NCBI GenBank assembly: GCA_035327585.1 | Contig: DAOLDD010000013.1 | Coordinates: forward strand, 5,174-69,173 | DNA: 64,000 nucleotides | Reading direction: 5' to 3' | DNA from: Kiritimatiellia bacterium | Lineage (GTDB): Bacteria > Verrucomicrobiota > Kiritimatiellia > CAIVKH01 | Shown here: in pieces, positions 35,601-59,000 of the stretch | Position numbering within the stretch: position 1 is the stretch's first letter | Layout: the number at the start of each line of letters is the position of its first letter | Made by a program: the position numbers and the translations under genes | Notes under the pieces: model-generated | Databases searched by the model: none | The model's input: only the letters and a program-made list of their open reading frames with translations | Told to the model about the DNA's origin: nothing

Positions 35601-38600
35601 CAACGGCGAAGGCCCGGAATTCGCCCGCCTGTTCTGGACCAAGAACGCCTCCTACGATGTGATGATCGTGCACCGCGAGACGAATACGCCCGCCGTGCCC
35701 GCGAACGGCACGCCCTACAGCGTGGGCGACACCTACGGCAGCGACGGAACCCGTGTGCTCTACAAGGGCGCCGCCGCGACGTTTGAACACGTCGTGCGGC
35801 CCGGTTCCACGAATCACTACACGATCTATTCGATCAACAACGACCATTACTCCGCGGGCGTGACTGGCGCGGCGACGAACCCGGGCTACGCGGCCAATGT
35901 AACGGTCGAATCGTTCGCTTACACCAATGCGTTGACCATGGGGTCGCGCAACGGCGGCGCCGGATGGAGCGCGAGCTGGACCGCCAACTCCGGAACGTTC
36001 ACGGTGAACACCACCCAGTTCACCGCCATCAGCGGCTATCCCAGCCGGGCGGGAAACACCATTACCGGGAATAACGCTTCGATCCGCCGCGACTTCACCG
36101 CGATCACCAGCGGCAGGATTTATGTGTCGTTCATGTTGCGCACCGACAATGGAGGAGGAAGCCAATACTCCGGCGTGAGCTTCTTCGACGGCGGCACGGA
36201 GGAGAAATTCTTCGGCGAGGGTTTCAGCCAGGTCAATCAGTTGACCGTGGGCGGAGCCGCCGGCCGTCAACTGGCCAACAATACCGACTACACCATCATC
36301 GCGATGTACGATTTTACCAGCGATATGGCCAAGGCCTTGCTCTACACCAACGCCACGGAAAGCATTCCGACCACTGAGCCGGTTACCTGGCATGTCGAGG
36401 AATCCGACGCTTCCATTTCCAGCATCAACCGAATCCGGCTGGAGTCAAATGTCGGTACACGGTGGGATGAGATCCGGATCGCGACGAACTACTACGAGTT
36501 GCTCCAGATCGAGGAAACCGAGCCCGCGCTGTTTGTCGGCCCGACCAACTTCTCGGTCACGCTGATGAAGGGCAATGCGTCCTCCAACAGCTTCGCCGTC
36601 ACCAATCTCGGGTCAAAGGCGCTGCTGTACACCAACACGATCACCTACGGTTCGGGGTCCGGCTGGCTGACCGTTGCGCCGACCGGCGGCACAATCGCCG
36701 GCAGCGCGACCCTCATTCACACGGGCGTGGTCAGCGCCGTCAGCCAGGCGGCGGGCACCTACGTCGCGACGAACCGCGTCGCGGGCAACCAGACCAACGC
36801 GGCGGTTGACGTCGTCTTCGCGATGACGGTGACGAACATTCCGCCGCCGACGGCGGTGCTGGCGACGAATGACGGCGCCGAGATGGTAAGAATGTCGTGG
36901 ACGGCGGCGGGCTCGCTCAACGTGATGATCGTGCACCGCGCGGGCGCGGATTTGTCCGCCGACCCGACGGACAACACGCCCTACAGCGTCAACGCGGCGC
37001 TTGGCGGCGGTACGGTCATCTTCAACGGGTCCGCCGCCAGCCGCGAACACGTGGTCGCGCCGGGCACGACGAACTATTACCGCTTCTATTCCGTCAACAA
37101 CAACCATTACTCGCCGATGGTCGCGGTGGCGGCGACGACGACCACATACCGGACCGGCGAAATCGTGGACCAGTTTGCCTACACGAATGGAGTCGGCGTC
37201 AACGGACTCGGCGGCGGCCAGGGCTGGACCAACAACTGGACGGCCACGGGACCGAATATCGCCGCGGATGTCGTGATCACAAACAACGACTTCATGCATC
37301 CCTTCAAGAGTAACTGGCCGACCCGTAATGCGAACGTTCTCGTTCTCAAGACGACGAACAATTCAACCTATGCGGCCCGCCGCAACTTCGCCGGCATCAC
37401 CGGCGGCAAAGTCTATATCGCCGCCGAATACAGGCGTGCGTTTGACGAAGGCCCGACGGACGGCAAGTTCTCCGGAATCCGGGTCGTAGACGGCACGACC
37501 GAGGTCGCGTACTTCGGCGAGCGCGGCGGTTCGGGCAATGAGGATATCTTCGGCGTGTCGAGTTCGGCGAGCGCCACCTACGGGGCGAACGACTCGTTTG
37601 GTCCCACCACCAATTTTCTCATCATCGGTCGCTACGACTTCGATACGGATGTCTTCTCCGCCATATACTTTACCACGAACGACACCTTGCCTGTCGCGGA
37701 GCCCGCGTTCCTCGTCAGCGTGACAAACTCGACCATCACCCGGATTGACGGTGTCCAACTGGTTGCCGGTGCGGATAACGGATGGGCGGGCAGCGTTCGT
37801 TTCGACGAAGTGCGCGTCGCGACGAACTGGTGGGAACTGCTCGGCAACACGCCTGCGCCGCCCTATGCAACCAACTATGTCGTCGGCAATGAGACCAACC
37901 ATGTTTCTGACGCGCAGGTCAACGCGGGGACCTTCCCGGTGATGATGGCCTTCCGAGCGGAGGGCGGTGTGGAGTCGACGAACACGATCCCGCCCTATTT
38001 CATCCCGAACTTCGACCTGTTCAACCCGAGCGGCGTGCAGATCGTCACCGACCGGGTCTTCTCGGTCTTCTCCTACCAGGATGGCGGGCTGACGCTGATC
38101 GCCTCGAATACGACGCATTCGACGGTCGTCCCGTCCGGCGTGGTGCTGGGTGTGCACACCGCGCGCTGGAGCGCGATTTCGTCGAACGGGTTCTCGGCGG
38201 TGGACGCCGCAACCTTGTCGAACGGCACGGCGATCACCTTCACCGTGTTCGATGACGACACGACCACGCCTGATCCCATCGGCATCAATTCCACGAACTC
38301 GGGCGGCGGCAGCAGCCGCCTGCTGCACATCGCGCAGGGCGCGGCCAATATCGGCGCGAACGGCGCGGCGTCGAACAACATCCAGTACACGATGACCGAC
38401 GCGGCGTTGACGAACACGACGGCGGCGAACCCGCTCTTCTTCTGGCTCGGCGCGCGCGACGGATCGGGGCTCAATCGCGACACCTCGAACGCCGACACCA
38501 ATTCGCATTTGAGCATCGGGTCCGCGATTATCAGCAACGTCGCGAACTACGACGCGAGCCGCAGTTCGGCATTCGCCGACACCTCGGCCGCGCGCGCCAC

Positions 38601-41600
38601 GAACGTATGGACCTGGACGACGGCGTTCAGCGCCTCGCAGATCGAAAACCTCGTCACGAACTCCGCCGTCGCCGGCTCCAACGCCGTCGTGGCCACCTGG
38701 CGCGATGCGGACGCGGATCGCGCGAACGATTCCACGATCCTGGTTCACACGCAGGGCTGGCTGCGGGTCACCGACGACGACACCACGCCGCCGACGATCC
38801 AGAACTTTAATATCTATGGCGCCCAGGGTTCGTACACCGTGCGGGTCGATGAACTGACCTCCGGCACCGGCTGGTCGATCACCGGCCGTGTCTCGGATGC
38901 GAGCGGCATCAATGTCAACGGCACGAACACGGTGCAGCCGAACAACTCGCCCTATTTCGAATTGTGGGATCCCGTGGGCGCGATGCGCTTCCGCAAGGCG
39001 TTCGGCGACCTGTCCTTCGCGGACGGTGGCGCAACCAGTCTCTCCGCCGTCAGCAACGGCGCCGAGGTGGTCAGCGGCGTGACCTTCGTGGATGCCGGCG
39101 TATGGACGGCGCGCGTGGTCGTGGCGGACAACGACGAGGACTTCGGCAACAACGACCATGCCATTGGAACGAATGAAATTTCGTTCACCGTCGTGCTGGG
39201 CGCGACTCTGGGCGGGCTCGGGAGCAGTCCGGGTCACTTCGCGGTGACGTCGTCCTTCGGCACGGTCACCAGCACCAATCCGTGGCCGCAGTTCTTCGTG
39301 ACGAACATCGGGTCGGGCACGCTGAACTACAATGCCGGCGTCAGCTACAGCGGGGCCGGCGGGTGGCTGACGGTCACGCCGACAAATGGTTCCCTGGCGG
39401 GAACGGGCGCGTGGCGGAGCCACACCAACAGCATCGACGCCTCCTCGCTGAGCCCGGGCACCTACACGGCGACGATCACCCTGAACGGCGACCAGACGAA
39501 CGCTGCGCAAACCATCACGGTCACCCTGCGGGTCTTCGGTTACTATCCGGGCGAAATTGTTGACCAGTTCACCAATTCCTCCGGCTCGTTGGAAGGCATG
39601 ATTGGTGGAACGGGCTGGTCGGGCGCGTGGGACAACAACCCGGACGTCGGGTTCTCCATTGATTCCGGCAACCTTACGGTTCCCGGCAACTACCCCGCGG
39701 CGGCGGGCAACAAGGTGTGCGGGAATACCGCCTCCGACACGGAGCTGCGCGTGTTCCGCGCGTTTGGAACCACCTTCAGCACCGGGAAGGTTTTCATGGC
39801 GATGGCCATGCGGAAGAGCGATGGCGATCCGAACGGATTCAATGGCATTTCCTTCATGAGCAATTCGACGGAAGTTGCCTTCGCGGGCAAGCTGTTCGGC
39901 AGCCAGTTCTTCGGTCTCGACCTCGGCGCAAACGGGGGCTCGGCCGCGAGCGCCTTCGGCGTAAATGGATCGGGCGACCCCGGCTACTTCTACATCGGCA
40001 TGTACGATTTCTCCGCCAACCGCTTCTACGGTCGCGCGTACAACAACAGCGATTCATTGCCGGTCACGGAGCCGACGTGGTCCGCCACCGGCACGCCGAC
40101 GGTGGCCATCGGTTCGATCAACGGGTTGCGCATCGCGGCGCGGAACGAGGGGACGTTCTGCTTCGACGAAGTCCGCGCGGCGTCGAGTTGGGAAGGGCTG
40201 CTCAACCAGTTCACGAACGAGCCCAACGTGCATGCCAGCGGCATCAACTTCCGCGAGGTCACGCCCTCCACGATGATCGTCGGCTGGACGCCGGGCAACG
40301 GCGCGAACCGCATCGTGATCGCGCGTGAAGGTTCGGCGGTCACATTGAGCCCGACGGACAGCGTGTCGTACGCGTTCAATAGCGACTTCACGTTGGCGCC
40401 GGATTTCGGCGGAAACCGGGTCGTGTACAACGGCGGCGGCACGAATTTCACGCTCGGCGGCCTCACCGCAACCACGCGCTACTTCTTCGCGATCTACGAA
40501 TACAACGGCGCCACGCCGAATTACTTCACCAACGCCGGCTTCGCGACCGGCAGCCGTTGGACGATTGCGACGGAACCCGCGAATCCAATCGTCACGTTCG
40601 ACGCGTATCCGGCCTCGGACACGACGATGACGAACAAGTGGACGCTTCCGGGCGGCACGCCGGAACCGGACGGCTACCTGATCCTGCGCCGCCAGGGCAG
40701 CGCCGTGGTGGACTTCCCGGTCGACGGCGTCGGCTATACCAACAACCAGCTCCTCCCGAACGCGCGTGTGGCGCTGGTGACGCCGGGCACGGCGATCGAG
40801 TTCCTGCAATCCAACATGACGTCGTGCCTGACGTACCACTTCAAGATATTCCCGTTCCGCTGGAACGGCACAGATGGCGAGACCTACAATTATCTCACCA
40901 ACTCCGCCGCCACCGCCTCGGCTGAAACGGACTGCACGGCGCCGACCCTGCAGGCGAGCAACATCGTCTTCAGCCTGACCGGCACGAACCGCATCACCCT
41001 GTCGTGGGAGCGGGGGAACGGGCAGGCCAGCCTGCTCGTGGTGCGCGGCACGAACGCCGTCAGCGCCGATCCATCCGACGGCACGACCTACACCGCCAGC
41101 GCGAACTATGGCAGCGGGTCGCATTTGGGCGGCGGAAATTATGTCGCCTACCTGGGCACGGGCTCGACTTTGACGGTCACCGGCTTGGTGCCGAATGTCA
41201 CCTACCACTTCCGCGTATACGAATACAACGGTTCCGGTTCTGGTATTGACTACAACACGAACACGGCGGTGAACAACCCGCGCAGCACGGCGACCGCCTC
41301 TTTTGGTATCGTCGAAGACAAGTTCGTCTGGAACTACTTCGGCGACTACGCAAACAATAACCTGAGCGGCGCCAGCACCGGGACCGGATGGACCAATAGC
41401 TGGACCACATACGGCGGCTATGTCGCTGTGGACGACGCCAATTCGCCCGCGTTCAAGGGGTATCCCGCCGATACGCGATCCGGCTGCGGTAATGACTGCA
41501 ATGACAGTCGGCAGGTCAAGATCGTCACCGTGAGTGATACCTCCTACGGGGCGCGCCGCTACTTCCCGGCCCGGACGAGCGGAAAGATTTATGCCGCGGT

Positions 41601-44600
41601 GAAGATCAACATACAGGACCCGTCGGACACGGCTTCGTGGGCCGGCTTGTCCTTTATGGATGGCGCGACCGAAGTCGGCTTCCTCGGCAAGGGATTCGGA
41701 AACACCTTCGACCTGACGCTTGACGATAACAATGGAAACGTGCGGACGAACACGACGTTCAACAACAACAGCTCCTGGCAGTTGTTCGGGGGCGTTCCGT
41801 ACCTCATTGTGCTGCAGTACGACTTTGATAATCAAATCCTGCGCGGCATGGGGCTTTCCACGTCTCTGATCCCGCCGGCCATCCCCGAGCTCGAACTCGG
41901 ATGGAATGTTGAAATTCCCAATGTGACGATCTCCCGGATCGACGGCATTCGGATTGGGGGTCGCAATGTCGGCGATTTGATCTTTGACCACATTCGTGTC
42001 GGACCGAGCTGGGAGGAAGTCGTCTGGAACCTGCCCGCGGGCTGGCACGAGGACAACGGCCCGGTGCCGACCCTGGTGTATATCGGAACGAACTATAATT
42101 CGGCCGTTTATGACCTCGTTATTACCAACCTGAGCGACGCGGAGTTGAAGTCGTCGCAGTTGATTGATTTCGCTGTTCGCTGGGAAAGCCCGGCCTACGG
42201 CGTATTCCTGACGAATTCCGTCGGCACCAACAGGAATCAGGGTTCGAAGAATGCCCGGGTCAGTCCGAACTGGGATCCGCTCGCGGTCGGAGTGGCGTCG
42301 AACATGTTCGGCCTCGACAGGTACTTCACGAACCATTTCGGGTTCAACGGCGCGAGTGTGGTCACGACATTCCAGAAAAACGGGTTCAGCGTGACCAACA
42401 TTGACTTCGATGTGCAGTATTTCGTGACCGTGTCGGCGGAGACGGATCCGGGCGGCAGCACCGTTTCTCCGTTCTACGGCGGTTCTGGCTGGGACAACGT
42501 GCCGGTCACCCGCGCGCTTACGATCAACGAACCGCTCCGGTTCTATGTGTACGACGATGACACCAACGCGCCGGTGCGCGGCAGCCGTCCGTTGCGCGTG
42601 TTGACGAACGCGACGATCGCCTCGGCGCAGACGGCTGGCGAATTCGAGCGCTACTTCGTCTATGACGGAGTGCTGACGCAGGCGGGCATGCGCGTGCAGC
42701 TCAATGCATTCGACAGCTACAGCGGCTTGCAACGCGCCGCGGGCGGGTCCCCGACGACCAACATGTCGATCACGATCCCGTACGTCGCGACGAACGACAC
42801 GGACAATTTCAGTCCGTCGATGAGCAGCGATTTCGATGACTCCAGGACGGCGACCGCCACCAGCACCTGGGCGTTCGCCGACTCGCTCTTCACCTGGGAC
42901 CGCGTGACCGCGATGTGGGGCGGCGACGGCAGCGGCGAACAGGGCCAGGATCTCGAAGTGCTCGCCACGATCCCGGACGCCGACGATGACCGCGTGGACG
43001 ACCAGATGTTCACCAGCAACGCGGTGATGGGGTACATCCGCCTGCTGGACGACGACATCGCACCGCCGGCCGTGGGGACGATCCCGCTGGCCGTCACGCT
43101 GGGCGCCGCCACCATCGCCCCGTCCAACACGGGCAGCCTGGTCGCGGGATGGAATTTCAACAGCAGCGATATCTCCGTCTCGCATGGCGCGGGCACGTTG
43201 AGCACGAACAACTTCACCGGCGGCATCACGTTTGGCCTCGGCACCACCCTCAACGCCGTCAGCGGCGACCCGGCGGGCAACGACCTGCTGATCACGGGCA
43301 ACAGCCAGAACGGACGCTACCTCCAGTTCCAGGTCAGCATGGCCGGCCAGGTCAGCCTGGTGCTGTCATTTGCGATGCAGCGCAGCGCGGCGAACGGGTT
43401 CACGAGTTGCCAGGTTTCCTACTCGGTCGACGGCGTGACCTTCACGAATTTCGGCGCGGCGATCACGCCGGCGGATTCCTACACGGCCTATTCAGTCGAC
43501 ATGAGCGGCGTCAATGCGCTGAACAACCAGGCTGCGGTGTACATCCGGTTGACCGTCGACGGCGCCACCAGCGGCGGCGGCACCATTCGCTTCGACAACT
43601 TCCAGTTCCGTTCGGGCTATTACTACGAACTGACCGACGGCCTGTTGGCGACCGTGGCGGCGACGAACGCGCTGAACTTCACGCTGAACTTCTTCGACAG
43701 CGCCAGCGGCGTTTCGCGCGGCAACAATCCCGCCATCCACACCCACGTCAACATCTCCGGCCTCGCGACGAATGATCCCAACTACAACGCCGCGCGCAGC
43801 TCGACGAATACCTCCGTGAACACCTCCACCACGACCTGGAGCTTCACGTCGTTCAGTTACAGCCAGATCGGCGACCTGTACGCGCAGGGGACGAACAACC
43901 GCGCCATTTACGCGAACCTCGTCGATGACGACAACGACCGCGATAACGACCGCGCGTGGGTGACCAATCGCTTCTTCGGACAGTTCCGCGTGATCGACGA
44001 CGACACCAATACGCCGGTGGTCGCGAACATCCGGCCCGGCGCGGGCGACGCGTCCGACCGCCCGTTCTGGGTCATGACCAACAGCGCGACGCCGACCCGC
44101 CTGGGCACGGCGTATGACGGAACCGTGCGCGACAGCCGCCGCTCCGGTACGGGAACCAACTCGGTCTTTGTGTTGTCCGACGCGGAAATGCTGAACGCAG
44201 GCAACCGGGGCATCCGTTTCGCCTTCGGCGCCCAGGATGTCGGATCCGGCCTCGCGCGCGGCAACTCTGGAACGACCAATCAAGTAATGAGCTTCAGCGT
44301 CGGAACCAATATTGTCGGCGAAATCACGCATTTCGACGCCTCATTGAGCACCGCGGGGAACCCGCTGGTCAATACGACCAACATCTGGGTCTTCACCGAT
44401 CTCACCTGGGGCGAGGCGGATATTGACGGCATGATGGCCGCCGGCGAAATGCCCGTGCGCGTGACCATACCCGACCTCGACAACGACCGGGCCAACGACG
44501 CGGCGGTCCTGTACTCGACGCAGGTGGGCTTCCTCAAGGTGGTCGACGACGATATCGAGCCGCCGTACTTGCCCTCACTGCAAATCGGGCCGGCAGGCAG

Positions 44601-46827
44601 TCACAACCTGCTGTCCATGGGCTTCGATCCGTATCACGGGTGGACCAGCACGGCTTCCGCCGCCTCTTACCTGGCCCGCACCAATTACGTCGGCGCCGAA
44701 CTGTGGGTGGGCGAGAACTTCGCCGTGCCCGACAGCCCGCTCCCGCTTCCGAATCGTCGCATGTCCGGCCTGCGCGTCGGCGCCTTCCAAGGCACGACCG
44801 GGCGCCTGACGATGCCGGTTGTGACGAATCCCGGCACGATCTTCGTCTGGGGTCGCTTGAGCGGCATCACGGGCGGCGGCACTCGCAACCTCCGAGTGGA
44901 AGGCACCACGAATGGCGTCGATTGGGCGGATTACGGTGAACGCACCGTGACGAACACCCTGTTCGAGCTCTTTAGCTGGAACATCAATCATGAAGGTGCG
45001 ATGACACTGCGCATCAGCCGGAGCGGATCCACCGAGCAGAACACGATTTACTTCGACGACATCAATCTGACGCGCATCGTCGAGTGGACGAATGTGAATG
45101 ACCTCGCCGTGTCGTGGGCGCCGGCTTCGGACACGAATTCGATTTACGAGTATCGCGGCATCACGAACGCGCAGCCCGTTTGGTTGGACGGGACCAACCT
45201 GGCGCAGGGTTTCTCGATCGCCACGACCAATGCGAATATACCGATGTCGGAAGGCGTCGTGACCGGTTTCATCCACGCGGTGGACGATGACAACGACCGC
45301 TCGAACGACCGTCTGCGGAACAGTGGCGCGCCGTATGTCGTGCGGATCGACCGGACCCCGCCGCTGCCGGTCCTTAACGCGACGAACGACATCACCGATC
45401 TCTCGGTGGATGAGACGTCCGAATTGAAGGTCACGTGGACACCGGCCGCCGGCGGGAACATGTTGGAAGCCGCCGGCTGGCGCGCGCTCGACAATGAGCC
45501 GCTGTCGCCGTGGGAAACCTACTACATCATGGTCCACGAGCTTGACGGCGGCGAGAACGAGGTCACGACCAACATCATCACGGCGACGAATGGCCCGCTG
45601 AATTTGGCGACCAATACGACCGCGTCGCTGGTCATCTCGAACCTGAACTTCGATTCGTTCTACCGGATCAAGATCGCGGGACGCGATCGCGCCGGCAACA
45701 TCGGGCCGTTCATGACGGTGACCGGCCTCACCGTGAACTTCCAGGTCACGCAGGGTCTGGCCCGGACCTCGGGCACGGTGACCAACGGCATCCGCCTCGC
45801 CTGGATCGCCGCGTCGAACCGCGTGTACGACACCTTGTATGTCGATGCCCGGAGCATGACCGATGCGATGAGCTCGCAGTGGGACTGGCTGGACCGGATC
45901 ACGAATAACATCGCGGAAGGCAACACGTTGCTGGACGAGGGCGGCGACAACCCGACCAACCGCTTCCGTGTGCCGCCCGCGGACCTCGCCTCGACGATGC
46001 GGTTCTACCGCGTTTCGCAGAAGGACATGTGGCAGATCAGCAATTCCATCCGTCGCGCCAGCCGCGAGGTCTATGTGACCAAGCCCATCCGGCTGGTGCC
46101 GGGCGAGAACTGGTACGGCACCTTCTTCGCGCCCGATACCGCGACGGTGTCCTATGTGTTCGGCACGAACCGGCTGCCGGCGGGTTCCGACTACGCGACG
46201 GCCACGAAGATTCACTGGTTCAGCCCGACCAACACTGGCGGCAGCTACAACTACGCGACCAACTCCATCGCGCTTGTCGGCAGCGGCATGTCCGGCGAGT
46301 GGTTGAGCTGGACCGGCGCGTGGGGCGCGTCCGCGAACAACATGCTGTTCCCGACCCACCAGGGCTTCATGCTCGAACTGCCGCCCGGCTCGCCAACCAT
46401 CCACCTGCCGGTCGTGGGTCGTGTGATCACCCAACAAGTGGTGCACACGATACCCGGGCGTGTAGGTTCCTTGGATGAGTGGCACGTCATGAACTGGAAC
46501 TACCCGGTCCGTATCCCCGTCACCGGATTGTTGCTGCGCGGTTCGGGGATGGTCGGAAACAATTCAGCCACGTTTGCCGACGAAATCAGGGTGCTGCGCA
46601 ACAACGGCAGTGGATCCATGACGCAGCCGCGGGGACGCTGGCGGTTGATGTCGGACCAGACGACGCTGGCCATCGTGGCCACAAACGAGTTCTACCCCTC
46701 GGCGAATATCAATACGCACTTCATCGAACCGGAAGATACGATCATCTTCAAGCGACGCGGGACGACCACCGTCTATTGGACCAACCGGGTCTACTACACC
46801 CCGCCGGGCAAGAATTTTGACCCATGA
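29623..46827 (+). CDS. Giant secreted/surface protein 1 (~5,730 aa) with autotransporter-associated beta-strand (PATR) repeats, FN3-like, BACON-like and jelly-roll modules, DDD repeats and a conserved C-terminal block
   Basis: Uninterrupted 17-kb ORF with a signal-peptide-like N-terminus. About 8 LTKxGxGTLxLSGxNTxSG repeats; FN3-type W...[10 protein letters not shown] units; VTNxG...WLTVxP BACON-like units. Start uncertain (29557 or 29623). Confidence 0.9.
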
Positions 46828-46848
46828 TTTTGATTTCCAACGAGTTGC

Positions 46849-46886
46849 GAAAACCCGCGCTGGCATCCAGACGCGGGTTTTCTATT
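46849..46886. terminator. Intrinsic terminator after giant protein 1
   Basis: GAAAACCCGCG-CTGG-CAT-CCAG-A-CGCGGGTTTTC followed by TATT. Confidence 0.75.
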
Positions 46887-47033: not shown

Positions 47034-47080
47034 TTTACAGACGTTGGACGTGATGGGTAACGGCTTTTACAGACGTTGGA
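47034..47080 (+). repeat. Direct pair of TTTACAGACGTTGGA overlapping the start of giant protein 2
   Basis: Identical 15-mers at 47034-47048 and 47066-47080 (32-bp period); near reverse complement of the 17759/17790 motif. Confidence 0.75.
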
Positions 47081-50000
47081 AAACGCAATATGGCGCGAGA
47101 CGCTTGCTGGGCGTTCTGCTGCTCGTTGCAGGTACGTGCGGCGCTCCACTGGCGCGCGCCGGCTACACGAACGATTGGGAGGCCACGTCGAATAAAACCG
47201 CTTATGGAAGCGGCAACCTGACCGTGGACGGCATCACCTGGCAATTGGTGGAGGCACTGGCCACGACCGGCGACAGCAGCGATTTCAAAAATGGTACGCG
47301 TTCCGCGCGAGGACGCGGATACGGCGTATCCGAAATCACCATGCTCGGCGATAAGTCTGGAGGGGTGGGCTATGTGACGTTCCAACATCGCCGTTATGGC
47401 ACCGATGCGCAGGTGGCGTGGGTGACCGAATACAGCACCAACAGCGGGTCGTCATGGACGGCCATCGGATCGACATTCACCCCCGGCGCCTCCGTGGACG
47501 TGTTTTCCAACAACGTTAATATCGCCGGAAATGTGCGCATTCGCATTCGAACGGATTCCTCCAGCGGTACCGCGAATCGCCGGGCGAACTTTGACGACAT
47601 CATCCTTTCAGATTACGCGTCCGTGACCGTGCCCACCGTCACCACCTTGGCCGGCACCGCGACGAACACGACCACCGCGACGGTCGGGGGCAATGTGACG
47701 GATGATGGCGGGGCAGCGGTGACGAATCGGGGCGTGGTCTATAAGACGACTGCGGGTGTGACGATCGCGGACAACAAGACGCAGTCGGGCAGCGGGACGG
47801 GCAGTTATACGGTCGATTTGACCAGCCTGTCGGTGAACACCCGGTACTACTTCCGCGCGTATGCCCAGAACAGCGAGGGCACCTCGCTCGGCAGTGAATT
47901 GGAGTTCTGGACCTGGGCGAATGTGCCGTCCGCGCCGACGGTGGATAACCCGACGACGTCTTCGTTGGACGTGAACGTGAATGTGAACGGAAACTCGGCG
48001 AGCACCCTCTTTTCGATCCAGGCGACGAACAGCAGCCTTTTCGTCCAGACCAACGGCACGCTCGGCGCGTCGGAGCACTGGCGCACGGATGCGGACTGGG
48101 GAACGATCACCGTGACCGGCCTCTCGCCGAGCCAGCAATACGGGTTCCGGGTCCGGGCGCAAAATGGGCAGGGGACGCTGACGGCGTACAGCACGGTGGC
48201 GAACGGCACGACGTCGGCGGGTTCCGTTCCGCCCACGGTGACGACCGCGGCGGGTACGGCGACCAACACCACCACGGCGACGGTGGGCGGCAATGTGACG
48301 GCGGATGGCGGCGCCACGGTCACGAACCGGGGCGTTGTGTACAAGACGACGGCGGGCGTCGCCATCACGGATAACAAGACCCAGTCGGGCTCCGGCACCG
48401 GCAGCTACACGGTCAATTTGACCAGCCTTTCGGTGAACCAGCAGTACTACTACCGGGCCTATGCCCAGAACAGCGCGGGTGACGGCTTGGGCAGCGAGTT
48501 GTCTTTCTGGACGTGGGCGAATGTGCCGTCCGCGCCGACGGTGAACAACCCGACGACGTCGTCGCTCGACGTGAATGTGAACGTGAACGGGAACCCGGCG
48601 GCGACGATCTTTTCGATCCAGGCGACCAACAGCAGTCTCTTCGTCCAAACCAACGGAACGCTCGGCGCGACGGAACACTGGCGCACGGATGCCGCGTGGG
48701 GAACGATCACGGTCACCGGGCTCGATCCCGGCCAGCAGTACGGCTTCCGCGTCCGCGCCCAAAACGGGCAGGGCACGCTGACGGCCTACAGTACGGTCGG
48801 CAACGGAACCACGCTCGCGACGACGCCCACGGTCACCACGGCGGTGGCGTCCGTGACCAACCAGATGACGGCGAATTCGGGCGGAAACGTAACTGCGGAC
48901 GGTGGCGCGACGGTCACCAACCGCGGCGTCGTGTGGGCGCTCTCGCCCGCGACGCCCACGGTGCCCGGCGCGCAAACGACCAATGGCACCGGCACGGGCG
49001 CCTTCACTTCGATCCTCACCAACTTGACACCCGGCGCGACCTACAACTACCGCGCCTTTGCCCAGAACAGCGCCGGCACCGCGTATGGAGCGCAGTACGA
49101 GCTCGCCACGCCCTGCTTCACCGGTGCGGTGCTCGGCCTCGTCGCCAGTGTGACGAACGATACGAGTTTCACGGCGGCGTGGACGGCGTTTGCTGGAGCT
49201 GGCGGGTATACGTTGGATGTGTCCACGAACGCCTCATTTTCCGTGGGTGGCGGTGGTCTGACCAATGTCTTCCGCGAAACCATGGGCTCGGTGGGCGGAA
49301 CGACAACGATCGCTGCGCATGAATCGGCCGATGGGTTCGATAACAACGACTACACCATGTCGTCCGGCGCCGCCGCCAATCCCGGCGATATTCGTGCGAC
49401 AAGCACATCCTCCGGCTACACAGATCCGGCCGGAAACGCGGCTTCAGGTAATGCGAATGTCTTTCTAACCTCCACCTCGGGAGATTATGGTTTCTCCATC
49501 GCGGGCATCGACACGACCGGCTATTCGGATTTGCTGCTGAGTTTTGGCTACCGCAAGGAAAGCGCCTCGGCCAATGCATCCTTCGTGGTTGAGTGGTCGA
49601 CCAACAACGCCTCGGCCTGGAACGCGATCACCGTGTCCAATATGCCGGCTGCCGGGGCGACCGCCGGCTGGTACATGATTTCCAATCTGGCCGTGTCCGC
49701 TTCGGCGGCAGGCACGACGAACTTGAGCCTGCGATGGGTCAAGTCCGGGACGACCGCGATGCGGCTGGACGACGTGTTGTTGCAGGGCAGCGCCGGTTCG
49801 CCCTCCTTTATCCCCGGCTATTCCAACCGCGTCGTGGCCGGGACCAGCCAGTCCGTTACCGGCCTGACGGCGGGATCGACCTACTATTTCCGCGTGTTGG
49901 CCACGAATGCGTATTGCACCTCGGATTATTCGAGCACGCAGTCGGTGACGACGACGGTCAGCGCGCCCGAAATCGCGGTCAGCGGCAATGGCAACAACAT

Positions 50001-53000
50001 CGCGGACGGGTCCGTCGCGCCAGCCATCTCCAACCACACGGACTTCGGTTCGGCCTCCGTCGCGGGCGGCACGGTCACCCGCACCTACACGATTACCAAT
50101 AGCGGTACGGCCAACCTTACTCTCGGCACGGTGACGACGAGCGGCACGCACGCGGCGGATTTTATTGTCACCGCGCAGCCGTCCAGCCCGGTCACGCCAG
50201 GCGGAAGCACGACGTTCCAGGTTCAGTTCGACCCGTCGGCCACGGGGACCCGTTCGGCGACCGTCAGCTTTACGAACAACGACGCGGATGAGAACCCCTT
50301 CAACTTCGCCATCCAAGGAACGGGCACCGCGCCGGAGATCGCCGTCAGCGGCAATGGGAACGATATCGCCGACGGCGATTCGACGCCGAGTCTGACGGAC
50401 CACACCGATTTTGGCGATGTGCTCGTCGATGGCGGCACGCTGACCCGGACCTACACCATCACCAATAGTGGCAACGAAAACCTGACGCTCGGTACGGTGA
50501 CCACGAGCGGCACGCACGCTGCGGATTTTATTGTCACCGCGCAGCCGTCCAGCCCGGTTGCGCCCGGCGGCAGCACCACGTTTCAGGTGCAGTTCAACCC
50601 GTCCGCCGTGGGCACGCGCACGGCGGAGGTCAGCTTCACGAACAATGATGCGGATGAAAATCCGTTCAATTTCACCATCCAGGGCACCGGTACCGCGCCG
50701 GAGATTGCGGTCAGCGGGAACGGGACGGATATCGCGGACGGCGACAATACGCCTTCCACGCTGGATGGCACCGATTTCGGCAGCGTGTTGGTCGGGAATC
50801 ACGTGGACCAGGTCTTTGTCATCACGAATAGCGGAACTGCATCGTTGACGGTCGGGAACGTGACGACGAGCGGCACGCACGCCGCGGACTTCATCGTCAC
50901 GGCGCAACCGTCGTCGCCTGTCGCCGCCGGCGGAAGCACCACGTTCACGCTGCGGTTCCTGCCCGGCGCGTCCGGTGTTCGCTCCGCCGCCGTCAGCTTC
51001 ACCAATGGCGACAGCGACGAGGACCCCTTCAACTTCAGTGTGCAGGGCAACGGCGTGCTGGCCGCGCCAAACATTGTGTTGCTCGGCACCAATGGCGCGA
51101 CGATTGCCAAGGATGACGTCACCCCGGACGTCGCGGACGGCACGGACTTCGGCTCCGCCAACGTCATCGGCGGGACCGTGACGCGCACCTTCACCATCAC
51201 GAACAACGGGACGGCTTCGCTGACCATTTCCGGGATTACGACCAGCGGCACGCACGCGGCGGACTTCGAGGTGACGACCGCGCCGGGCGGCAGCGTGGCG
51301 GCGGGTGCGACGACGACGTTTGTGGTGACCTTTGATCCCGCGGATCGCGGCCTGCGTGAGGCCACGTTCAGCATTGCCAACAACGACGGGCCGAACAACC
51401 CCTACACGTTTGCCGTGCAAGGCACGGGACTCGCGCCGGAAATCGCCGTGAGCGGAAACGGCAACAACATCGCGGACGGTTCCGTGACGCCCGCGCTCTC
51501 CAATCACACGGATTTTGGCAGCGCCGACATCGCGGGCGGTACGGTGACGCGAACCTTCACGATCACCAACATCGGCAACGCCAGCTTGACCATTGGCTCG
51601 GTCAGCACCAGCGGCGCACACGCCGCGGATTTCATCGTGACGGTGCAACCCGCCGGCACGCTCGCGGTGAGCAATAGCACGACCTTCCAGGTTCAGTTTG
51701 ACCCATTTGTCGCCGGGACGCGCTCGGCGACGCTAAGTTTCAGCAACGGCGACCCGGATCGCGATCCATTCTCCTTCGACATTGAGGGCACGGGTGTCGT
51801 CAATCCCGAGATCGCCGTGCTGGGCACGAACGGCGCCCTGGTGGCGGATGGCGACAACACGCCCAGTTTCGCGGATGGCACGGATTTCGGCGCCACTGCG
51901 GTGACTGGCGGCCAGGTCGATCGCACGCTCTTCATCACGAACTCCGGCTCCGGCGCGCTGACGATCACCGGCGTGACCACTTCCGGCGCGCACGCCGCGG
52001 ACTTCGTGGTCGTGAGCTGGCCGGCCCTCGTGGATGCGGGCGCGCGGTCCAACCTCGTCCTGCGGTTCGATCCAACGGCGTCCGGCGTGCGCACAGCCGC
52101 GGTGGTGATCGCCAGCGATGACGCGGATGAGGCCAGCTATGACTTCGCGGTGCGCGGTACGGGCCAGGTTCCGCCCACCGTCACGACGACGATCGCCTCT
52201 GCGACGAACCAGACCACGGCGACCGCAGGCGGCAACGTGACGGCGGACGGCTTCGCGACGGTCACCAACCGCGGCGTCGTGTGGGCGCTCTCGCCCGCGA
52301 CGCCCACCGTGCCCGGCGCGCAGACCACCAACGGCACGGGCACGGGCAGCTACAGCGCCACCCTTACGAATCTGATCCCCGGCGCCACGTACAACTATCG
52401 CGCCTTCGCGCAGAACTCCGCCGGCACCTCCTATGGCGCACAGACGAACCTCACCACGCCTTGTTTCAGCGGCGTGGTGACGGGTCTCGTGGTCACGGTC
52501 ACCAACGAAACCAGCTTCACGGCCGCGTGGAGCAACTTTGCGGGCGCGACGGGGTATGCACTGGATGTCGCAACCGTTTCCAATTTCAGCGGGGCGGCAT
52601 CGACGATCGGGCAGCAGGATTTCGAGGCCAGTCCCGCATCGCCTGTTGCCACCTACTCGGCATCCGGTGGCGGGATCGTCACGGGAGACTCGGCTTCCGG
52701 CGATCGCCCGGCCAGCAGTCCGTTTGCGAGCAGCGGAACAAATGCCTACAGCGTCAACAACGGCAGCGCGACGATCACGTTTGACGCGGTGGACACCAGC
52801 GGTTCGTCGGACTTGACCCTGTCGATGCGCGTTGCGTCGTTTTCCATCGCCTCCACGGGCAACGGCGCGGATGCGGGCGACATCGTCACCGTTTCGATCA
52901 GCCCTGACAACGGCGCAACCTACTACTCGACGCTGCGCATTCTCGGCAACAACAACGCCTACTGGAGCTACGCAGGCGGAACCGGTGTGGCTACGACGGA

Positions 53001-56000
53001 TTACGACGGCGATGTGACGCCCGTTGATTTCCAGCCCGCGGGCGGCGGCAATCGGACAACGGACGGCTACAGCACGGTGATCATATCCAATCTGCCTGCC
53101 GTGGCGCAGTTGCGCGTGCGTGTGGCGATGCTGAATAATGCAAGCGGCGAGCGCTGGACTGTTGACGACGTGGTGCTCAGCGGGTCCGCCGGCGGCTATG
53201 TGGCCGGTTACTCAAACCGCACCGTTTCGGGGACCAGCACGACCGTCACCGGTCTCACGGACGGCGTGACGTATTACCTCCGCGTCCGCGCCACGAATGA
53301 ATATTGCATCACCGACAATTCCTCCACGCAGTCCGTGACGACCACGATTGGCGCGGATGTCGCGGCGCCATCACTCTCCGGGTTCAACATCGACGCGGCG
53401 AGCTTCACCGACTTCCAGATTCGCAATGGGTTCTCCGTCACCGGCCTTGTGTTCGACGCGGGCGGCGTATCCAACGCGACGCACACGCCGTACCTGTTCC
53501 TCAAGAACAACTCGAACAACACGATCCTCGCCTCCAACAAGTTCGATGTCGCGCCCGCGAACGGGACGACGGTGCTGAGTCCCTTGTCGGAAACGGTGCC
53601 CGGCGCGGCCTACACGAATGTCACGCTGGGCAGCTACACCGGCACGGTCGGCGCGGCGGACCTGGCGGGCAACGTGGCGGTGTCAAATTTCATTTTCTCC
53701 GTGATCGACGACGATTCCACGCCGCCGACGATTTCGAGCGCGGACTTCACCTACGGCGGGGTTGGCAGCCGCTACTTTGCGATCACTACGAACAGCACCC
53801 CGGCCACGGTCACCAACCGCGCGGGTACGTTCGCCAACGTTCGCTACACGTTGACGGACGAGGAACTGGCCCAGGCCAACGCCCGCGACCTGCGCTTCGC
53901 CTTCGGCGTTCGCGACGCGGACAGCGGCATCGCGCGCGGCACCGCCGGCACGACGAACACGGTGATGAGTTTCAGCCTCGAAAATGCCGTATCCGGCAAC
54001 TTCACCAACTATCGCGCGGACTTGAGCAGCGCCAACTACACCAACGCCCGCACGACGAACGTCTGGTCGTTCCCCTTGGGCTTCTTCACCGAATCCATCA
54101 TCAACAACCTGATGGCGGCCTCCTCCAACCGCGTCACGATCACCGTGCCGGACGACGACAATGATCGGACCAACGACCAGGCACTGCTGATCAGCGAGAC
54201 GGTGGGGTGGGTGACGGCGGTGGATGACGACACGGTTCCGCCGGATTTGTCCAACATCCGGATCGGCGCCGTCGGCGGTTCTGGAGCTGCGGCGCCCGTG
54301 TGGGTGGAGACGATGGGCACAGTGGGTGGAGCCACAGCCATCGCAGCCTATGAGTCCGCCAATAATTTTGACAACGATGCGCAAACGATGAGCGGTTCGG
54401 GCGGATCGGGCGAAGGCATCTACAGCACGGTCAATTCCAGCGGGTATACCAATGCATCCGGAAGCGCCAATCTTCGCTTCGGGGGCTATGGGCAGTTTCT
54501 CCAAATCGATGGTCTCGACATGAGTACGAACGCCAATGTGTCGATGTCCTTCGGCATCAGCCTTGGCGCGGGCTCGGCAAACAACGACCACATCAAGGCG
54601 GAATATTCAACGAATGGGACCGATTGGGTGGACCTGCCGTTTTCGGTGGATGCGACAACGAGTTGGCAGCTGGTGGAGCCGTCCGGGACCATCCCGTCGT
54701 CCGCCGGTTTGAGTATTCGCCTGCGCCGCACCTCCACCGGGACCGCTGGATGGGACTTCCGAATTGACGATATCACCCTCTATTCCACTGCGCCTTCGGT
54801 CACCAACCTCACGGACGGCCAGCTTTTCGCCGGCGTCGCGCTCACCGGTCTCGTGCAGGACGCCTACAGCGGCATCTACGGCACCAACCACACCGGTGCG
54901 TTTGCGCCCACGGTGACGGTGTTCAATGCGACCGGCGGGATCGTCTATGGCGCGCGGTTTGCAGGCGGACCGGCCAATGGCGGCGCGCTCACGGCGACGC
55001 CGTTCTCGAATCTGGTATCGCTGGCGACCAACGACATCGCCATCGGCGCGACCTACACCTCGCGCGTGGTGGTTTGGGATTATGATTTCGACCGCACGGG
55101 CGACCAGCTTTCGTCCACGCAGCAGGTGGCCTTCACGGTCATTGACGATGATACCAACGCGCCCGCAGTCAGTGGCTTCAGCCTCGGCGGCGCGACCACA
55201 AACTACGACCTGAGTTTCAGCTCAATCGCCCTCACCGGCACGATCACCGACGCGTCCGGCGTGCAGTACGGCGGCGCCTCCTATTACCTTGTGTTGGGCG
55301 GCAGCGGCGTGGTGCAGAGCAACGCCCTCTTCGCCGGCGCGGGGAACGCCGCGACCGGGACGATCACGGACGCGGGCCTGCTGTGCGGCCAGGATTATAC
55401 GATTCGCGTCTTCGCGATCGATGCGGACCTCGACCGCGCGAACGACCAACTCTCGACCACGCAGAACGTCCTCGTCATCCGCACCATCGGCGTCGGCGGC
55501 CCGGCGGACTTCCCGATTGCCAGCAACCTGCTGGTCAACGGGACTGCGGCATCCCCGGCGGTGACGTTGACTGACGCGAACATCGCGACCGGCGGCTGGT
55601 CGCTGGCCATGAATCTCAGCCATCCCGTGGGCGTCCAGACGAATGCGACCTCGCCGTCGTTCCGTGTAACAAACAGCGTGGGCGAGGTGCTCGGCAGCAT
55701 CCCGTGGAGCAACGGCGTCCTCTCCGGGCAGACCTACTTCTTCACCAACAGCGGCCTACCCGCGGTTTCCTACGCCGCGGTGGAGACCGGCCTGCATCAC
55801 GTGGTCTGGTCCGCGCTCAACGCGGGTTCGTGCGTGGCGAACGTGATCGACCGCGGAATCATTGCCGGTGGCACGAACAGCTTCACGGTGGTTGACGACG
55901 ATTCGGCGCCGCCGGTCTTGAGCGGATTTGCCGCGCCAGGCGGGGCGACCATTGATGTCTCCGTTGCACTTTCCGGGTTCACGGTCACCGGATTGGTGCA

Positions 56001-59000
56001 GGATGCCGGCAGCGGCGTCGCTTTCACCAGCCGTCCCCCATACTTCCTGTTCCTCAACACGGACGGGGCGGTCCTCGCGAGCAACGCCTTCAGCGGACAT
56101 ACCGAAGGCGCGGGCCTCGCATCGGCCGTGGCGCTGACCAACTGGTTCAGCGGCCTGACGCTGACCTGCGGCAACAGCTACACCGTGCGCGTCGTGGCAG
56201 CGGATGCGGACAATGACCGCGCGAGTGACGCTGCCGTGGGGACGAATGACGTCCTCGTGATCGTGACCAGCGGGTCGGACGGCGACGCGCCGACGGCGGC
56301 AGACCTCTTCGTGAACAACACGCCCGCGGCCTCGGCCACGCTTACCGACCAGAATATTGCGACGGGCGGCTGGCGGGTGGCGCTGTCCTTCACGCACATC
56401 TCGGGCGACATTGTGACCAACGGCGTCGATGCGCCGTCCTTTGCGGTGCGGAACGCGGACGCGGTGGATGTATACGGCCTGCTCGCGTGGAGCAACATCA
56501 CGAAGTCCGGCGCCACGTACTACGCGACCAATCACCCGATGATGTCGGCCGATACGAACCTCGTGACCACGGGACTCTACACGCTCGTTTGGTCGGCCCG
56601 CAGCGAAGGGTTGTGCTTCGGGCTGACAAATGGGAGCACGCTCGTCTCGCCCGGCACCAACACCTTCCTGGTCGTGGACGACGATGTGACGCCGCCGGAC
56701 CTGTATGGCGTCAACGTCGGCGGCGGCACGGGCACGGGCTGCGGCGGATCGGGCGGCAACTGCCCCGATCCCACCCGCACGAACCTGATCGCGGGCGACA
56801 TCGCGATCTTTGCCATGAACACGCTCACCACGGGAGGCATCGGAACCAATGTCTTGTTCAATTCCGATTCCTTCGCGTTCGTCACCCTGGTCGACATCCC
56901 GACGGGAACCGAGATCAAATTTACGGATAACGGCTGGCGAAGCAGCACGGCGTCGTTCCGGGCCAACGAAGGCATCCTGACCTGGCGCGCGACGAATTGC
57001 GTGCCGGCCGGCACGGTGGTCCGGTGGATCGCGACCAATACGCCCGTTTTCAATGTCGGGGTGCTGCAGTCCGTCGCGGGTTCCTTCGCACCCAATATCC
57101 AGGGCGAACAAATCCTTGCGTATCAGGGGCCGAACAACGCGCCCAACTTCATCTATGCCGTCAACGACCGGTTGGATGGCATCTGGGATATCGATGCCGT
57201 GGATTCCCATTCGTCCGCCCTGCCCCCCGGGCTGATCGACGGCTACACCGCCGTCGCGGTGGGTGAGTTCGACAACATCATCATCGATACGAACAACCTG
57301 TCGATCAGCGGCGGTCGCGATGCGGTGCTGTTCTACATCGGCGGCGCGGACAACTGGATCGGCAGCGACTCCACGCCCTACAACCTGGCGCTCTTCAATT
57401 TCACCTTCCCCGACCTGTGCGCGGCGGGCGGCGTGATCACGGATGGCGACCTGCTGGCCGGCGGCTGGAGCATCACGGGCTTGGTGCAGGATGTGAACAG
57501 CGGCTTGCTCGTCAGCAATGCGGCCGGCGTCCGCTACATGGTGCTGAACACCAACAGCGGCGTGGTCGTCTCGAATTATTTCACCACGACGTTTGCGTCG
57601 GGCTCGACGTTGTTGCACGGCCTGTCCAACGCCATTCCCGGCGGCGACTACTTTGCGATTCAACTTGGTTCGCTTACCGCGCGCCTGTTCGCCGCGGATG
57701 CCGACAACGACCGTCCGAATGACAGCGCTGAACGCATGACCAACGTCGCCTTCACCGTCGTGGACGACGACACCGATCCTCCGCAGATCGGCTTCTTCTT
57801 CGTCAACGGCCAGACCACGATCACCAACGCCGCCGACCTCCTGTCGATGGTGATTTCCGGCCAGGTCCGCGACGTGACCAGCGGCATCGGCTTCACCTCC
57901 GCGCCGCCCACCTATACCGTGCTCGACTCTCTGGGCTTCACCGTCGCCTCCGGCGGCTTCGCGAACACCCCGGGAACCGAGGGCGCGGGTCTGAACTGGA
58001 CCAGCATCTGGACGGCGCCGATTAATCTCGCGGGCATCGCCGATTGCGGCGTGTACACCGTGCGGGTCACCGTGGCGGACGCGGACAATGACCGCGTTGG
58101 CGACCGGCTCCAGACGAACCTCAACTTCATCATCAGCGTCACGACCGGGACCGGCGAGGAACCGGCCGCGAGCAACCTGCTTGTGAACACTTCGCCCGCG
58201 GACGTGGCGACGCTGACGGACGCCGAACTGGCGGCAGGCGGCTGGGATCTGGCCATGAGCCTGCATCATCCGATCGGCATCCGCTACGACAGCCCGTTCG
58301 AGCCCTCCTTCGAGATACGCGACCCGAACGCGGTCACCGTCATCGGACAGAACTGGACGAACATTGAAACCGTCGGCGGCACCGCCTACGTGACCAACTA
58401 CGGCCTGCCCGGCGTGGCCTACGCGAATGTGTTCACCGGTTTCTACACGGTCGCCTGGTCGGCGCGCAGCCAGGGCGCCTGCTACGGCGAGGTGTTCGAT
58501 GCGCTGTTCATCGGCGGCACGTCGAATCGACTCCGGGTGGTGGACGACGACACCACGGGCCCCACCGCCGCGAGCAACTTCGTCAACACGGCGGTCCAGT
58601 GGACCAACAACCCGGTCGTGACCTATACGTGGGATACGAGCTCCGTCCACGATGTGTCCGGTGTGTTCGAGTTTCGCATCCGGACGGATGGCCTGGCGCC
58701 GACCACGATGGCGGATGGCGTATCGGCGGGACTGACCAACACCATTACGCTCACCAACCTGAACGAAGGCGTGCTTACCAACTGGCTGTTCGCGATCGAT
58801 AACGACAACGATCGCGCGAACGACCGGGCGATGGGAGCGGCGACAACGACAGTGCTCTATCTCGATTTCACCGCACCGAGCCAGGTGACGGATTTTGTCG
58901 CGTCGCCCGGTGCGATCGATGATACCTCGGAAATCGACCTCACCTGGACGCCCCTGGCTGACGCCGGCAATCCTGACCTGTCGCCGTGGGACACCTACCG

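Follow-up and report, generated by a model that had tools for sequence, protein, structure and literature searches.

Two giant open reading frames (ORFs) lie next to each other on the same strand of the DNA examined here (hereafter the window), which comprises 64,000 nucleotides (nt) from a Kiritimatiellia bacterium (assembly GCA_035327585.1, contig DAOLDD010000013.1, positions 5,174 to 69,173; the source assembly is 3.8 Mb in 79 contigs). Giant 1 (29557-46827, + strand) encodes 5756 amino acids (aa) and giant 2 (47044-62079, + strand) encodes 5011 aa, and two acidic motifs, DxDxDRxxD and DDDxxPP, recur in both. We found that the two motifs belong to one uncatalogued, seven-strand immunoglobulin (Ig)-like stalk module of ~125 residues. 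What is new here is most likely the unmodelled Ig-like stalk module itself, a pairing of acidic elements that is shifted by one module from the earlier assumption, an alternative Cys lock, and a nested slot with exchangeable contents. On balance, and with some reserve, we favor a model in which these Ig-like modules form stalks with Ca2+ junctions, a Cys pair serves as the alternative lock, swappable payload domains are nested within the array, and the giants function as cell-surface display stalks.

A regular-expression scan located D.D.DR..D at residues 3050, 4474, 4790, 4973, and 5243 of giant 1 (n = 5) and at residues 2370, 2679, 2793, 3054, 3552, 3679, and 3919 of giant 2 (n = 7), while DDDxxP was found at residues 2899, 3073, 4333, 4498, 4814, and 4997 of giant 1 (n = 6) and at residues 2222, 2394, 2701, 2951, 3212, 3574, and 3834 of giant 2 (n = 7). 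Together, the motifs cover nt 38251-58824. These counts are exactly those claimed in an earlier note on this DNA, and the coordinates agree with it. From composition alone, each giant would be expected to contain 0.0017-0.0020 loops and 0.03-0.04 linkers, and the abundance of both motifs is far above chance. The earlier note also treated the loop and the linker that follows it as a single unit. The regular spacing that this implies does exist, as the distance from loop to linker is 22-24 residues whenever one module holds both, but the pairing breaks down elsewhere: only 7 of the 12 loops have a DDD linker downstream, and 6 of the 13 linkers have no preceding loop.

When the ~120-residue stretches ending in DDDxxPP were aligned, a common pattern emerged (...LTD....GG.sITG.V.D..SGv....P.f.v.n..G.vv.sn.F.........lG.Y.v.v.A.DaDnDR.nD......f.VvDDDt.PP). 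A hidden Markov model (HMM) of the module was seeded with 8 copies, iterated over the giants plus 24 homologues, and converged at 129 positions, assigning 8 modules to giant 1 and 11 to giant 2. The copies vary in length and type: some are short, some are long owing to an extended N-terminus, and others make up a His/Cys subtype or a terminal subtype. In the rest of the 3.8-Mb genome, no ORF besides the two giants contains the module. The building of an HMM and a search with it had been proposed along with the claim that the repeats fit no existing family, and this claim held up, as no cadherin, Calx-beta, TSP3, or other Pfam or NCBIfam model matched the modules significantly. Pfam and NCBIfam scans of the giants recognized only the flanking PATR, FN3, BACON-like, and HYDIN/VesB-like Ig domains and none on the modules, and NCBIfam scans of the module regions returned nothing. 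Neither cadherin (PF00028) nor Calx-beta (PF03160) matched at E<=0.01 over whole regions or at E<=10 with ten single modules, and the same ten modules gave no match to TSP3 (PF02412) or FG-GAP at E<=10. As for the Pfam Big_* models, the only matches among these ten were weak ones to Big_3_2 (E 0.031) and Big_13 (E 0.081), both below cut-offs and both confined to the first module (m1) of giant 2, which has a DLAGN loop rather than a DxDxDR (DR) loop. PF03160 does occur in the homologue P0007, but outside its stalk modules. A module-pair profile found no significant relative among PDB sequences, nor did a broader single-module profile that included the Lokiarchaeota repeats described below, for which the best match was to KIAA0319L PKD domains (E 0.039) and N-cadherin appeared at E ~0.4.

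Modeling of a tandem pair had likewise been proposed, and AlphaFold2 was run on giant 2 m8-m9 (aa 3455-3712) with a 30-sequence alignment. The resulting model has a predicted local distance difference test score (pLDDT) of 84 and a predicted template modeling score (pTM) of 0.67, and it consists of two seven-strand beta-sandwiches of the Ig-like type. The loop D97-D105 connects strand F (88-98) to strand G (109-119), DDD (120-122) directly follows strand G, and strand A of the next module begins at 127, with the linker modelled at a pLDDT of ~89. As modelled, DxDxDRxxD is shown to be the F-G hairpin loop and DDDxxPP a seven-residue connector from strand G to strand A. In HMM coordinates, the acidic elements of the module are an Asp in the B-C loop at column 30, the F-G loop at columns 99-107, and the linker at columns 121-123. 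Loop columns 99, 101, 103, and 107 are D at 74%, 67%, 67%, and 79%, respectively, and the column after DDD is T at 40% and otherwise variable (T, S, I, V, D, A). A Foldseek comparison of the m8-m9 model with the PDB returned tandem Ig-like proteins, among them Sap S-layer domains, many pairs of cadherin and protocadherin extracellular (EC) domains, Fab fragments, RbmA, Cpe0147, and pilins as well. E values ranged from 3.5e-6 to 3e-4 (7e-6 to 3e-4 for the cadherin EC pairs), but template modeling (TM) scores were only 0.2-0.3. By this model, the fold is Ig-like and is cadherin-like in a general sense, with no specific membership.

Consecutive modules, n and n+1, were compared with each other. 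At the direct junctions of giant 2, a DDD linker is always followed by a module with DxDxDR and a non-DDD linker is always followed by a module without it. Junction counts are listed hereafter as (DDD linker in n, DxDxDR in n+1): yes/yes, yes/no, no/yes, no/no. The first homologue set (23 proteins) yielded 112 / 10 / 0 / 60 (Fisher p 5e-38), while loop and linker were negatively associated within the same module in this set (odds ratio 0.11). With the B-C Asp (column 30, 'V.D..SG') added, 94 junctions had all three elements and 56 had none of them and a His at column 30. Collapsing the modules to 45%-identity clusters gave 31 / 7 / 0 / 9 (p 8e-6), and an independent set (1037 modules from 145 representatives at 50% identity) gave 352 / 165 / 9 / 29 (odds ratio 6.9, p 1e-7). 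At the level of sequence, the DDD linker of module n and the B-C Asp and F-G loop of module n+1 are shown to appear and disappear together.

Successive strands of a seven-strand sandwich point in opposite directions, which brings the B-C and F-G loops to the N-terminal pole and leaves the E-F loop at the other pole together with the C-terminus. The F-G loop and the downstream DDD linker of a module are at its N-terminal and C-terminal poles, respectively; therefore, these two do not form a common site, and the F-G loop of module n+1 should face the linker arriving from module n. The likeness to inter-domain Ca2+ sites that was raised by the earlier note is consistent with the Ig-like fold and with the presence of cadherin EC pairs among the best structural neighbors, but the loop is not partnered with the DDD linker downstream of it. 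By Ig topology, the linker of module n and the B-C Asp and F-G loop of module n+1 would instead meet at the n/n+1 junction, where they could create a poly-acidic pocket between the domains, with ~8 carboxylates and one Arg. Such a pocket would bind Ca2+, probably 2-3 ions, and stiffen the junction much like cadherin linkers or SiiE type I sites, and an array stiffened in this manner could persist as an extended rod that survives outside of the cell. An inter-domain acidic site of the cadherin or bacterial Ig (BIg) kind is most likely the best reading of these junctions, with Ca2+ binding as its predicted function.

The Arg of the loop had been described as invariant, which proved too strong, although it is strongly conserved. 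Over 1004 loops, position 6 is R in 78%, W in 5%, H in 3%, and G in 3%, with F also tolerated, while position 9 is D in 80%. In the survey by Rigden et al., all metal-binding Dx[DN]xDG loops have Gly at position 6 (PMC3123361). Gly is rare at this position in the stalk loops, and DxDxDRxxD is therefore not a canonical member of the Dx[DN]xDG class. Within a multi-Ca2+ site, the Arg may serve to balance charge; alternatively, it may salt-bridge the linker directly.

Junctions without the acidic set appear to have a different solution. Cys residues in the module family cluster at columns 88 (E-F loop) and 103 (the third Asp position of the loop). Cys 88 of module n and Cys 103 of module n+1 were both present in 76 junctions, with only one of them in 7 and neither in 669, and all 76 double-Cys junctions have a non-DDD linker. 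The same pairing was recovered in the independent set, with an odds ratio of 1162. Giant 2 contains three such pairs, all on the + strand and all at junctions that lack the acidic set: C2781 (nt 55384) with C2930 (nt 55831) between m4 and m5, C3042 (nt 56167) with C3191 (nt 56614) between m6 and m7, and C3668 (nt 58045) with C3813 (nt 58480) between m9 and m10. The remaining non-DDD junctions mostly have DED, DND, or DDQ variants of the linker followed by DR loops. Given the Cys pairs and these variants, almost all direct junctions can be classed as acidic or as Cys-Cys. The co-varying Cys pair suggests an inter-domain disulfide that serves as an alternative lock wherever the acidic set is missing; an E-F-loop Cys of module n would be bonded to an F-G-loop Cys of module n+1, with the latter replacing the third Asp. 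The same co-variation also supports locating the F-G loop where its module meets the upstream one.

The arrays are interrupted by gaps of 150-230 residues after certain DDD linkers, and we refer to the domains that fill them as payloads. They are found at aa 4507-4679 (43075-43593) and 5006-5156 (44572-45024) of giant 1 and at aa 2403-2575 (P2a, 54250-54768) and 3221-3449 (P2b, 56704-57390) of giant 2, all on the + strand. In the giants, and also across homologues, the module after each payload gap bears a DR loop, and the payload junctions of the wider set gave counts of 172 / 22 / 10 / 19. The first giant 1 payload matches F5/8 type C (discoidin) weakly, at an E of 0.002 that does not reach the Pfam cut-off, and the second belongs to the same single-linkage payload cluster as the slot payloads of several homologues. 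For P2a, a three-domain AlphaFold2 model of m2, the payload, and m3 was made from 10 sequences (pLDDT 52, pTM 0.39) and was used only for the payload fold, taking the part with pLDDT 64-90. This part resembles the carbohydrate-binding modules (CBMs) CBM22, CBM61, CBM4, and CBM6, as well as a sialidase galactose-binding module, reelin subrepeats, and MAM, with TM scores of <=0.6 on the target, and the weak Pfam hints from payloads to F5/8 type C and Reelin subrepeat B agree with these matches. In the model, P2a is shown to be a jelly-roll of the CBM or galactose-binding type. The 229-residue P2b is conserved in about 20 homologues and had no match in Pfam or among PDB sequences. It is bracketed by C3233 at its base (nt 56740) and C3459 at its end (nt 57418), both of which are present in ~14 orthologues, while neither is present in P0006, P0007, and P0018, which suggests that the two Cys could form a staple closing the inserted domain.

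The payloads do not seem to lie between modules. For ~10 residues past DDDxxP, payload junctions and direct junctions share the same strand-A pattern, while the HMM match to the next module starts at positions 8-11 after a payload versus 1-3 after a direct junction. Splicing the post-linker segment back onto the module improved its score by 1.84 bits versus 0.97 bits for control segments (p 2e-7). This suggests that the module downstream of the DDD linker harbors the payload after its strand A, such that the payload would hang off the side of the rod and leave the junction unbroken. The earlier note had placed unrelated jelly-roll payloads right after several DDD linkers; payloads are indeed seen at four such sites and a jelly-roll is modelled for one, but they are apparently nested in the downstream module. 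Its further proposal of the linker as a module-exchange point agrees with the homologues, in which collinear orthologues hold different payloads in the same slot. Among orthologues that are collinear over all 11 modules, slot 1 carries the CBM-like family in giant 2 and 9 others, a lamin-tail domain (LTD, PF00932, E 2.4e-12) in P0010 and P0011, and a third payload family in P0015 and P0016. In another slot, P0021 has a PLD-like domain (PF13091, E 5e-22). An exchange of payloads between orthologues at the same slot is thus supported by sequence comparison, and the giants would serve as stalks on the cell surface, presenting domains for binding or enzymatic activity.

Several points weigh against this overall interpretation. 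The linker and the B-C and F-G loops are placed close together on the basis of Ig topology and co-variation rather than of measured distances. The Arg occupies the position at which known metal-binding Dx[DN]xDG loops have Gly, and the canonical Ca2+ turn is maybe not adopted. About one third of the DDD linkers in the wider set precede modules without DxDxDR. Many junctions derive from duplicated two- or three-module units, and the co-variation, especially that of the Cys pair, may partly reflect shared ancestry rather than contact; the co-occurrence of the Cys is partly inherited because the units are duplicates of a common ancestor. As for the payloads, the effect size in the splice test is small and the three-domain model, at a pLDDT of 52, is too poor to speak on nested geometry.

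Other explanations for the motifs must also be considered. The acidic elements could form a metal-free electrostatic clasp, with the F-G Arg salt-bridging the DDD linker of the preceding module and the other Asp providing solubility or repulsion. Such a clasp would account for the predominance of Arg (78% of ~1000 loops) at position 6, a place at which Ca2+ binding by Dx[DN]xDG loops requires Gly, and the linker/loop co-variation fits it equally well. We nonetheless consider it unlikely, as a single Arg is unable to balance ~8 clustered carboxylates, like clusters in the extracellular Ig-like arrays of cadherin, SiiE, BapA, and LapF bind Ca2+, and the tolerance of W, H, G, and F at position 6 speaks against an essential salt bridge. 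It is less probable still that the loop alone binds one Ca2+ in the style of integrin alpha/FG-GAP or TSP3, serving only its own module and leaving DDD as an independent spacer. The loop does share its Asp positions (1, 3, 5, and 9) with DxDxDGxxD loops, and it sits in a beta-hairpin of the model, but it depends upon the upstream DDD and the B-C Asp: after non-DDD linkers, DR loops were found in 0 of 60 cases in the first set and in 9 of 38 in the second. In addition, the change of the third Asp to Cys co-varies with a Cys of the upstream module, which puts the loop at an interface, and the loop has neither Gly at position 6 nor a TSP3 or FG-GAP model match.

Two further explanations are the least likely. 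True but divergent cadherin or Calx-beta repeats could explain why EC pairs are among the top Foldseek matches (E 7e-6 to 3e-4), why Y.v.V.A.D...f.V.DDD..P resembles the cadherin pattern Y.L.V.A.D...V.V.D.NDN.P, and why N-cadherin appears at E ~0.4 in the PDB profile search. However, TM scores are 0.2-0.3, with Fab fragments, S-layer domains, and pilins scoring equally, the DRE and DxNDN motifs are absent, the PDB profile matches are not significant, and PF00028 and PF03160 remain unmatched at the thresholds given above, all of which makes a specific cadherin or Calx-beta origin highly improbable. We attach equally little credence to the view that DDDxxPP is a processing or modification site, for example for proteolytic maturation or for O-glycosylation of the Ser/Thr after DDD. 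Thr or Ser does often follow DDD (T 40%) and proline-rich linkers are common modification sites, but the linker is modelled confidently as a short rigid connector and co-varies with two loops of the next module, while the residue after DDD is variable. The Ca2+ junction thus remains our preferred reading of the acidic set.

Three candidate features were examined and rejected. A "TD" motif (HMM columns 13-14) was dropped as a part of the junction site, since it is retained in modules without the acidic set and lies in the A-B helix, far from the N-terminal pole. An Asp-Pro self-cleavage module was ruled out, as DDDxxPP contains no D directly next to a P. Ester or isopeptide cross-links, prompted by the Cpe0147 Foldseek match, require Thr/Gln or Lys/Asn partner residues, and these are absent from the conserved columns.

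The family is rare, as a profile search of 1.84 billion representative proteins returned only 337 matches at E<=1e-3 and 92 at E<=1e-30, mostly proteins of 1000-8000 aa with up to 27 module copies. Close homologues of the giants carry Kiritimatiellia protein names. Within the phylum of the window, the module occurs in 14 of 201 genomes (9 of 103 genera), all 14 of which belong to the same class, and it is found there only within open frames of 1,851-12,833 aa. Taxonomy was taken from cluster names and from this phylum-wide genome search; the named cluster members include Kiritimatiellia, Verrucomicrobia, one Gemmatimonadetes type IX secretion system (T9SS) protein, and several Candidatus Lokiarchaeota metagenome-assembled genomes. 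The Lokiarchaeota proteins P0094, P0143, P0122, P0079, P0088, and P0097 have tandem compact 88-residue repeats that keep D.SG, DxDNDRxxD, and IIDDDxxPP, and no Pfam model describes these repeats. P0143 terminates in a hydrophobic helix followed by RRRRR, which resembles a membrane anchor. The occurrence in Lokiarchaeota may result from transfer or from common ancestry. In P0079, Pfam Y_Y_Y (PF07495) reaches 43 bits versus a cut-off of 26.6, but only by summing sub-threshold matches over many repeats; as sequence evidence, this score is a faint hint to the Ig-like clan of the module. More tentatively, the modules could represent an ancient stalk family shared by Kiritimatiellia and other Verrucomicrobiota, Gemmatimonadota T9SS proteins, and Lokiarchaeota surface proteins, with an Arg-containing poly-Asp Ca2+ cluster and a disulfide as two interchangeable locks and a dedicated nested slot for swapping CBM, lamin-tail, and PLD domains, a scenario we regard as possible though not the favored one.

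All features of the arrays are on the + strand. In giant 1, modules 1-3 span 37864-39213 (aa 2770-2906, 2907-3081, and 3080-3219). Module 1 lacks a DR loop and closes with DDDTTTP at nt 38251. In module 2, the loop is DADADRAND (nt 38704-38730) and the linker is DDDTTPP (nt 38773), and module 3 has a variant loop without a DDD linker. Modules 4-5 (42103-43074; aa 4183-4340 and 4341-4506) contain the linker DDDTNAP (nt 42553), the loop DADDDRVDD (nt 42976-43002), and the linker DDDIAPP (nt 43048), after which the first payload begins. Modules 6-7 (43594-44571; aa 4680-4822 and 4823-5005) contain the loops DDDNDRDND (nt 43924-43950) and DLDNDRAND (nt 44473-44499) and the linkers DDDTNTP (nt 43996) and DDDIEPP (nt 44545). 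The second payload is followed by the terminal module (45025-45372; aa 5157-5272), which has the loop DDDNDRSND (nt 45283-45309) and ends in RIDRTPP, and then by FN3 and the tail shared with giant 2. In giant 2, m1-m2 span 53371-54249 (aa 2110-2230 and 2231-2402); m1 has the loop AADLAGN, which is not of the DR type, and the linker DDDSTPP (nt 53707), in m2, the loop is DDDNDRTND (nt 54151-54177) and the linker is DDDTVPP (nt 54223). Beyond P2a, m3-m7 (54769-56703) have the loops DYDFDRTGD (nt 55078), DADLDRAND (nt 55420), and DADNDRASD (nt 56203) and DDD linkers at nt 55144, 55894, and 56677. Beyond P2b, m8-m11 (57391-58881) have the loops DADNDRPND (nt 57697), DADNDRVGD (nt 58078), and DNDNDRAND (nt 58798) and DDD linkers at nt 57763 and 58543. 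Across m3-m10 (54769-58569), a three-module order recurs: a module with a DR loop and a DDD linker, one with a DR loop and a Gly-rich linker, and a His/Cys-type module with a DDD linker. This order looks like an old duplicated super-repeat, and the three Cys junctions of giant 2 fall within it.

Outside of the stalk modules, giant 1 has a signal-peptide-like N-terminus, PATR repeats, and FN3, BACON-like, and LamG-like domains, while giant 2 has a signal-peptide-like N-terminus, FN3, and HYDIN/VesB-like Ig domains. Both giants have a common tail of ~460-480 residues after the last module and FN3 (45373-46824 in giant 1, where it is ~480 aa, and 58882-60300 in giant 2, where further FN3 domains are present), and most homologues terminate 457-466 residues past the last module. 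The tails of both giants had no NCBIfam match, including TIGR02597, by plain hmmscan at E<=1. The database protein P0003 is identical to giant 2 but has 4991 aa, and the TTG-started giant 2 ORF is 20 residues longer (47044-47103). The real start of giant 2 may be ~60 nt downstream of the TTG, and the N-terminus is signal-peptide-like from either start. Immediately upstream of giant 1 is an IS200-like Y1 transposase gene (28414-29424, + strand; PF01797, E 4e-15). Farther upstream, 25987-27045 and 27093-28289, both on the - strand, encode a Laminin_G_3/concanavalin-like lectin domain protein (E 4e-30) and a PEGA-domain protein, which may be part of the same surface apparatus as the giants.

The module represents a domain family that is missed by current libraries, and its recognition could bring annotation to several hundred "hypothetical" proteins of very large size from Kiritimatiellia, other Verrucomicrobiota, Gemmatimonadota, and Lokiarchaeota. 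If both locks do operate at one structural position, the stalks would offer a natural case in which the rigidity of an Ig-like rod is achieved by either a metal or a covalent bond. A conserved slot with exchanged payloads would similarly amount to a natural plug-in scaffold for surface display and a design rule for engineered ones. The payloads also hint at what these poorly known polysaccharide-degrading bacteria hold out from the cell, namely glycan-binding and enzymatic domains. It should be noted that Ca2+-stiffened Ig-like adhesin stalks are already well known, and the present finding extends that picture rather than overturning it.

Among known systems, SiiE of Salmonella offers a close parallel. 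Its type I Ca2+ site combines D117 of BIg n-1 with D43 and D97 of BIg n, is located where the two domains meet, and makes the adhesin rigid; comparable sites are described for BapA, LapF, and a PKD domain (PMC5466336). Like the giants, SiiE is a giant secreted protein of tandem Ig-like domains, and its three-part layout corresponds to the linker (columns 121-123), the B-C Asp (column 30), and the F-G loop (columns 99-107) of the stalk modules. The three SiiE-like Asp positions are thus present and strongly co-vary, while their spatial convergence is predicted from topology. In contrast to SiiE, the stalk modules have a larger acidic set, with three linker Asp plus four loop Asp and the Arg, and the giants bear a Sec-type N-terminus and PATR repeats with no RTX region or other sign of type I secretion. 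The stalk modules have no detectable sequence relation to SiiE, as judged by Pfam BIg models and PDB sequences, and neither the Cys-Cys junction nor the nested payload slot is described for SiiE in PMC5466336. With cadherins (PF00028), the modules share seven-strand Ig-like sandwiches and a seven-residue, acidic, Pro-terminated linker after strand G. In cadherins, Ca2+ is bound jointly by the linker and by loops of the following domain (DxD in B-C, Asp in F-G). The stalk modules differ in lacking both DRE (columns 85-89 are N-V-T-L-G) and DxNDN, in having a D..SG B-C loop, and in drawing their acidic input mainly from the F-G loop of the next module rather than from the E-F loop of the same module. 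Dx[DN]xDG loops resemble the stalk loop in being short, in their Asp pattern (positions 1, 3, 5, and 9), and in their extracellular, Asp-rich setting, but the stalk loop has Arg at position 6 and is coupled to the linker of a neighboring domain. TSP3 proteins differ in having tandem short DxDxDGxxDxxD repeats, as opposed to one loop per 125-residue beta-sandwich. Region II of MpIBP from Marinomonas and other RTX adhesins form long arrays of ~100-residue Ig-like domains with Ca2+-stiffened junctions, which hold ligand-binding domains off the cell. The giants resemble these adhesins in having long Ig-like arrays that would hold out ligand-binding domains; however, the MpIBP repeats are near-identical and its ligand-binding domains are located at the end of the array, whereas the stalk modules are diverged into several subtypes and carry their payloads along the rod.

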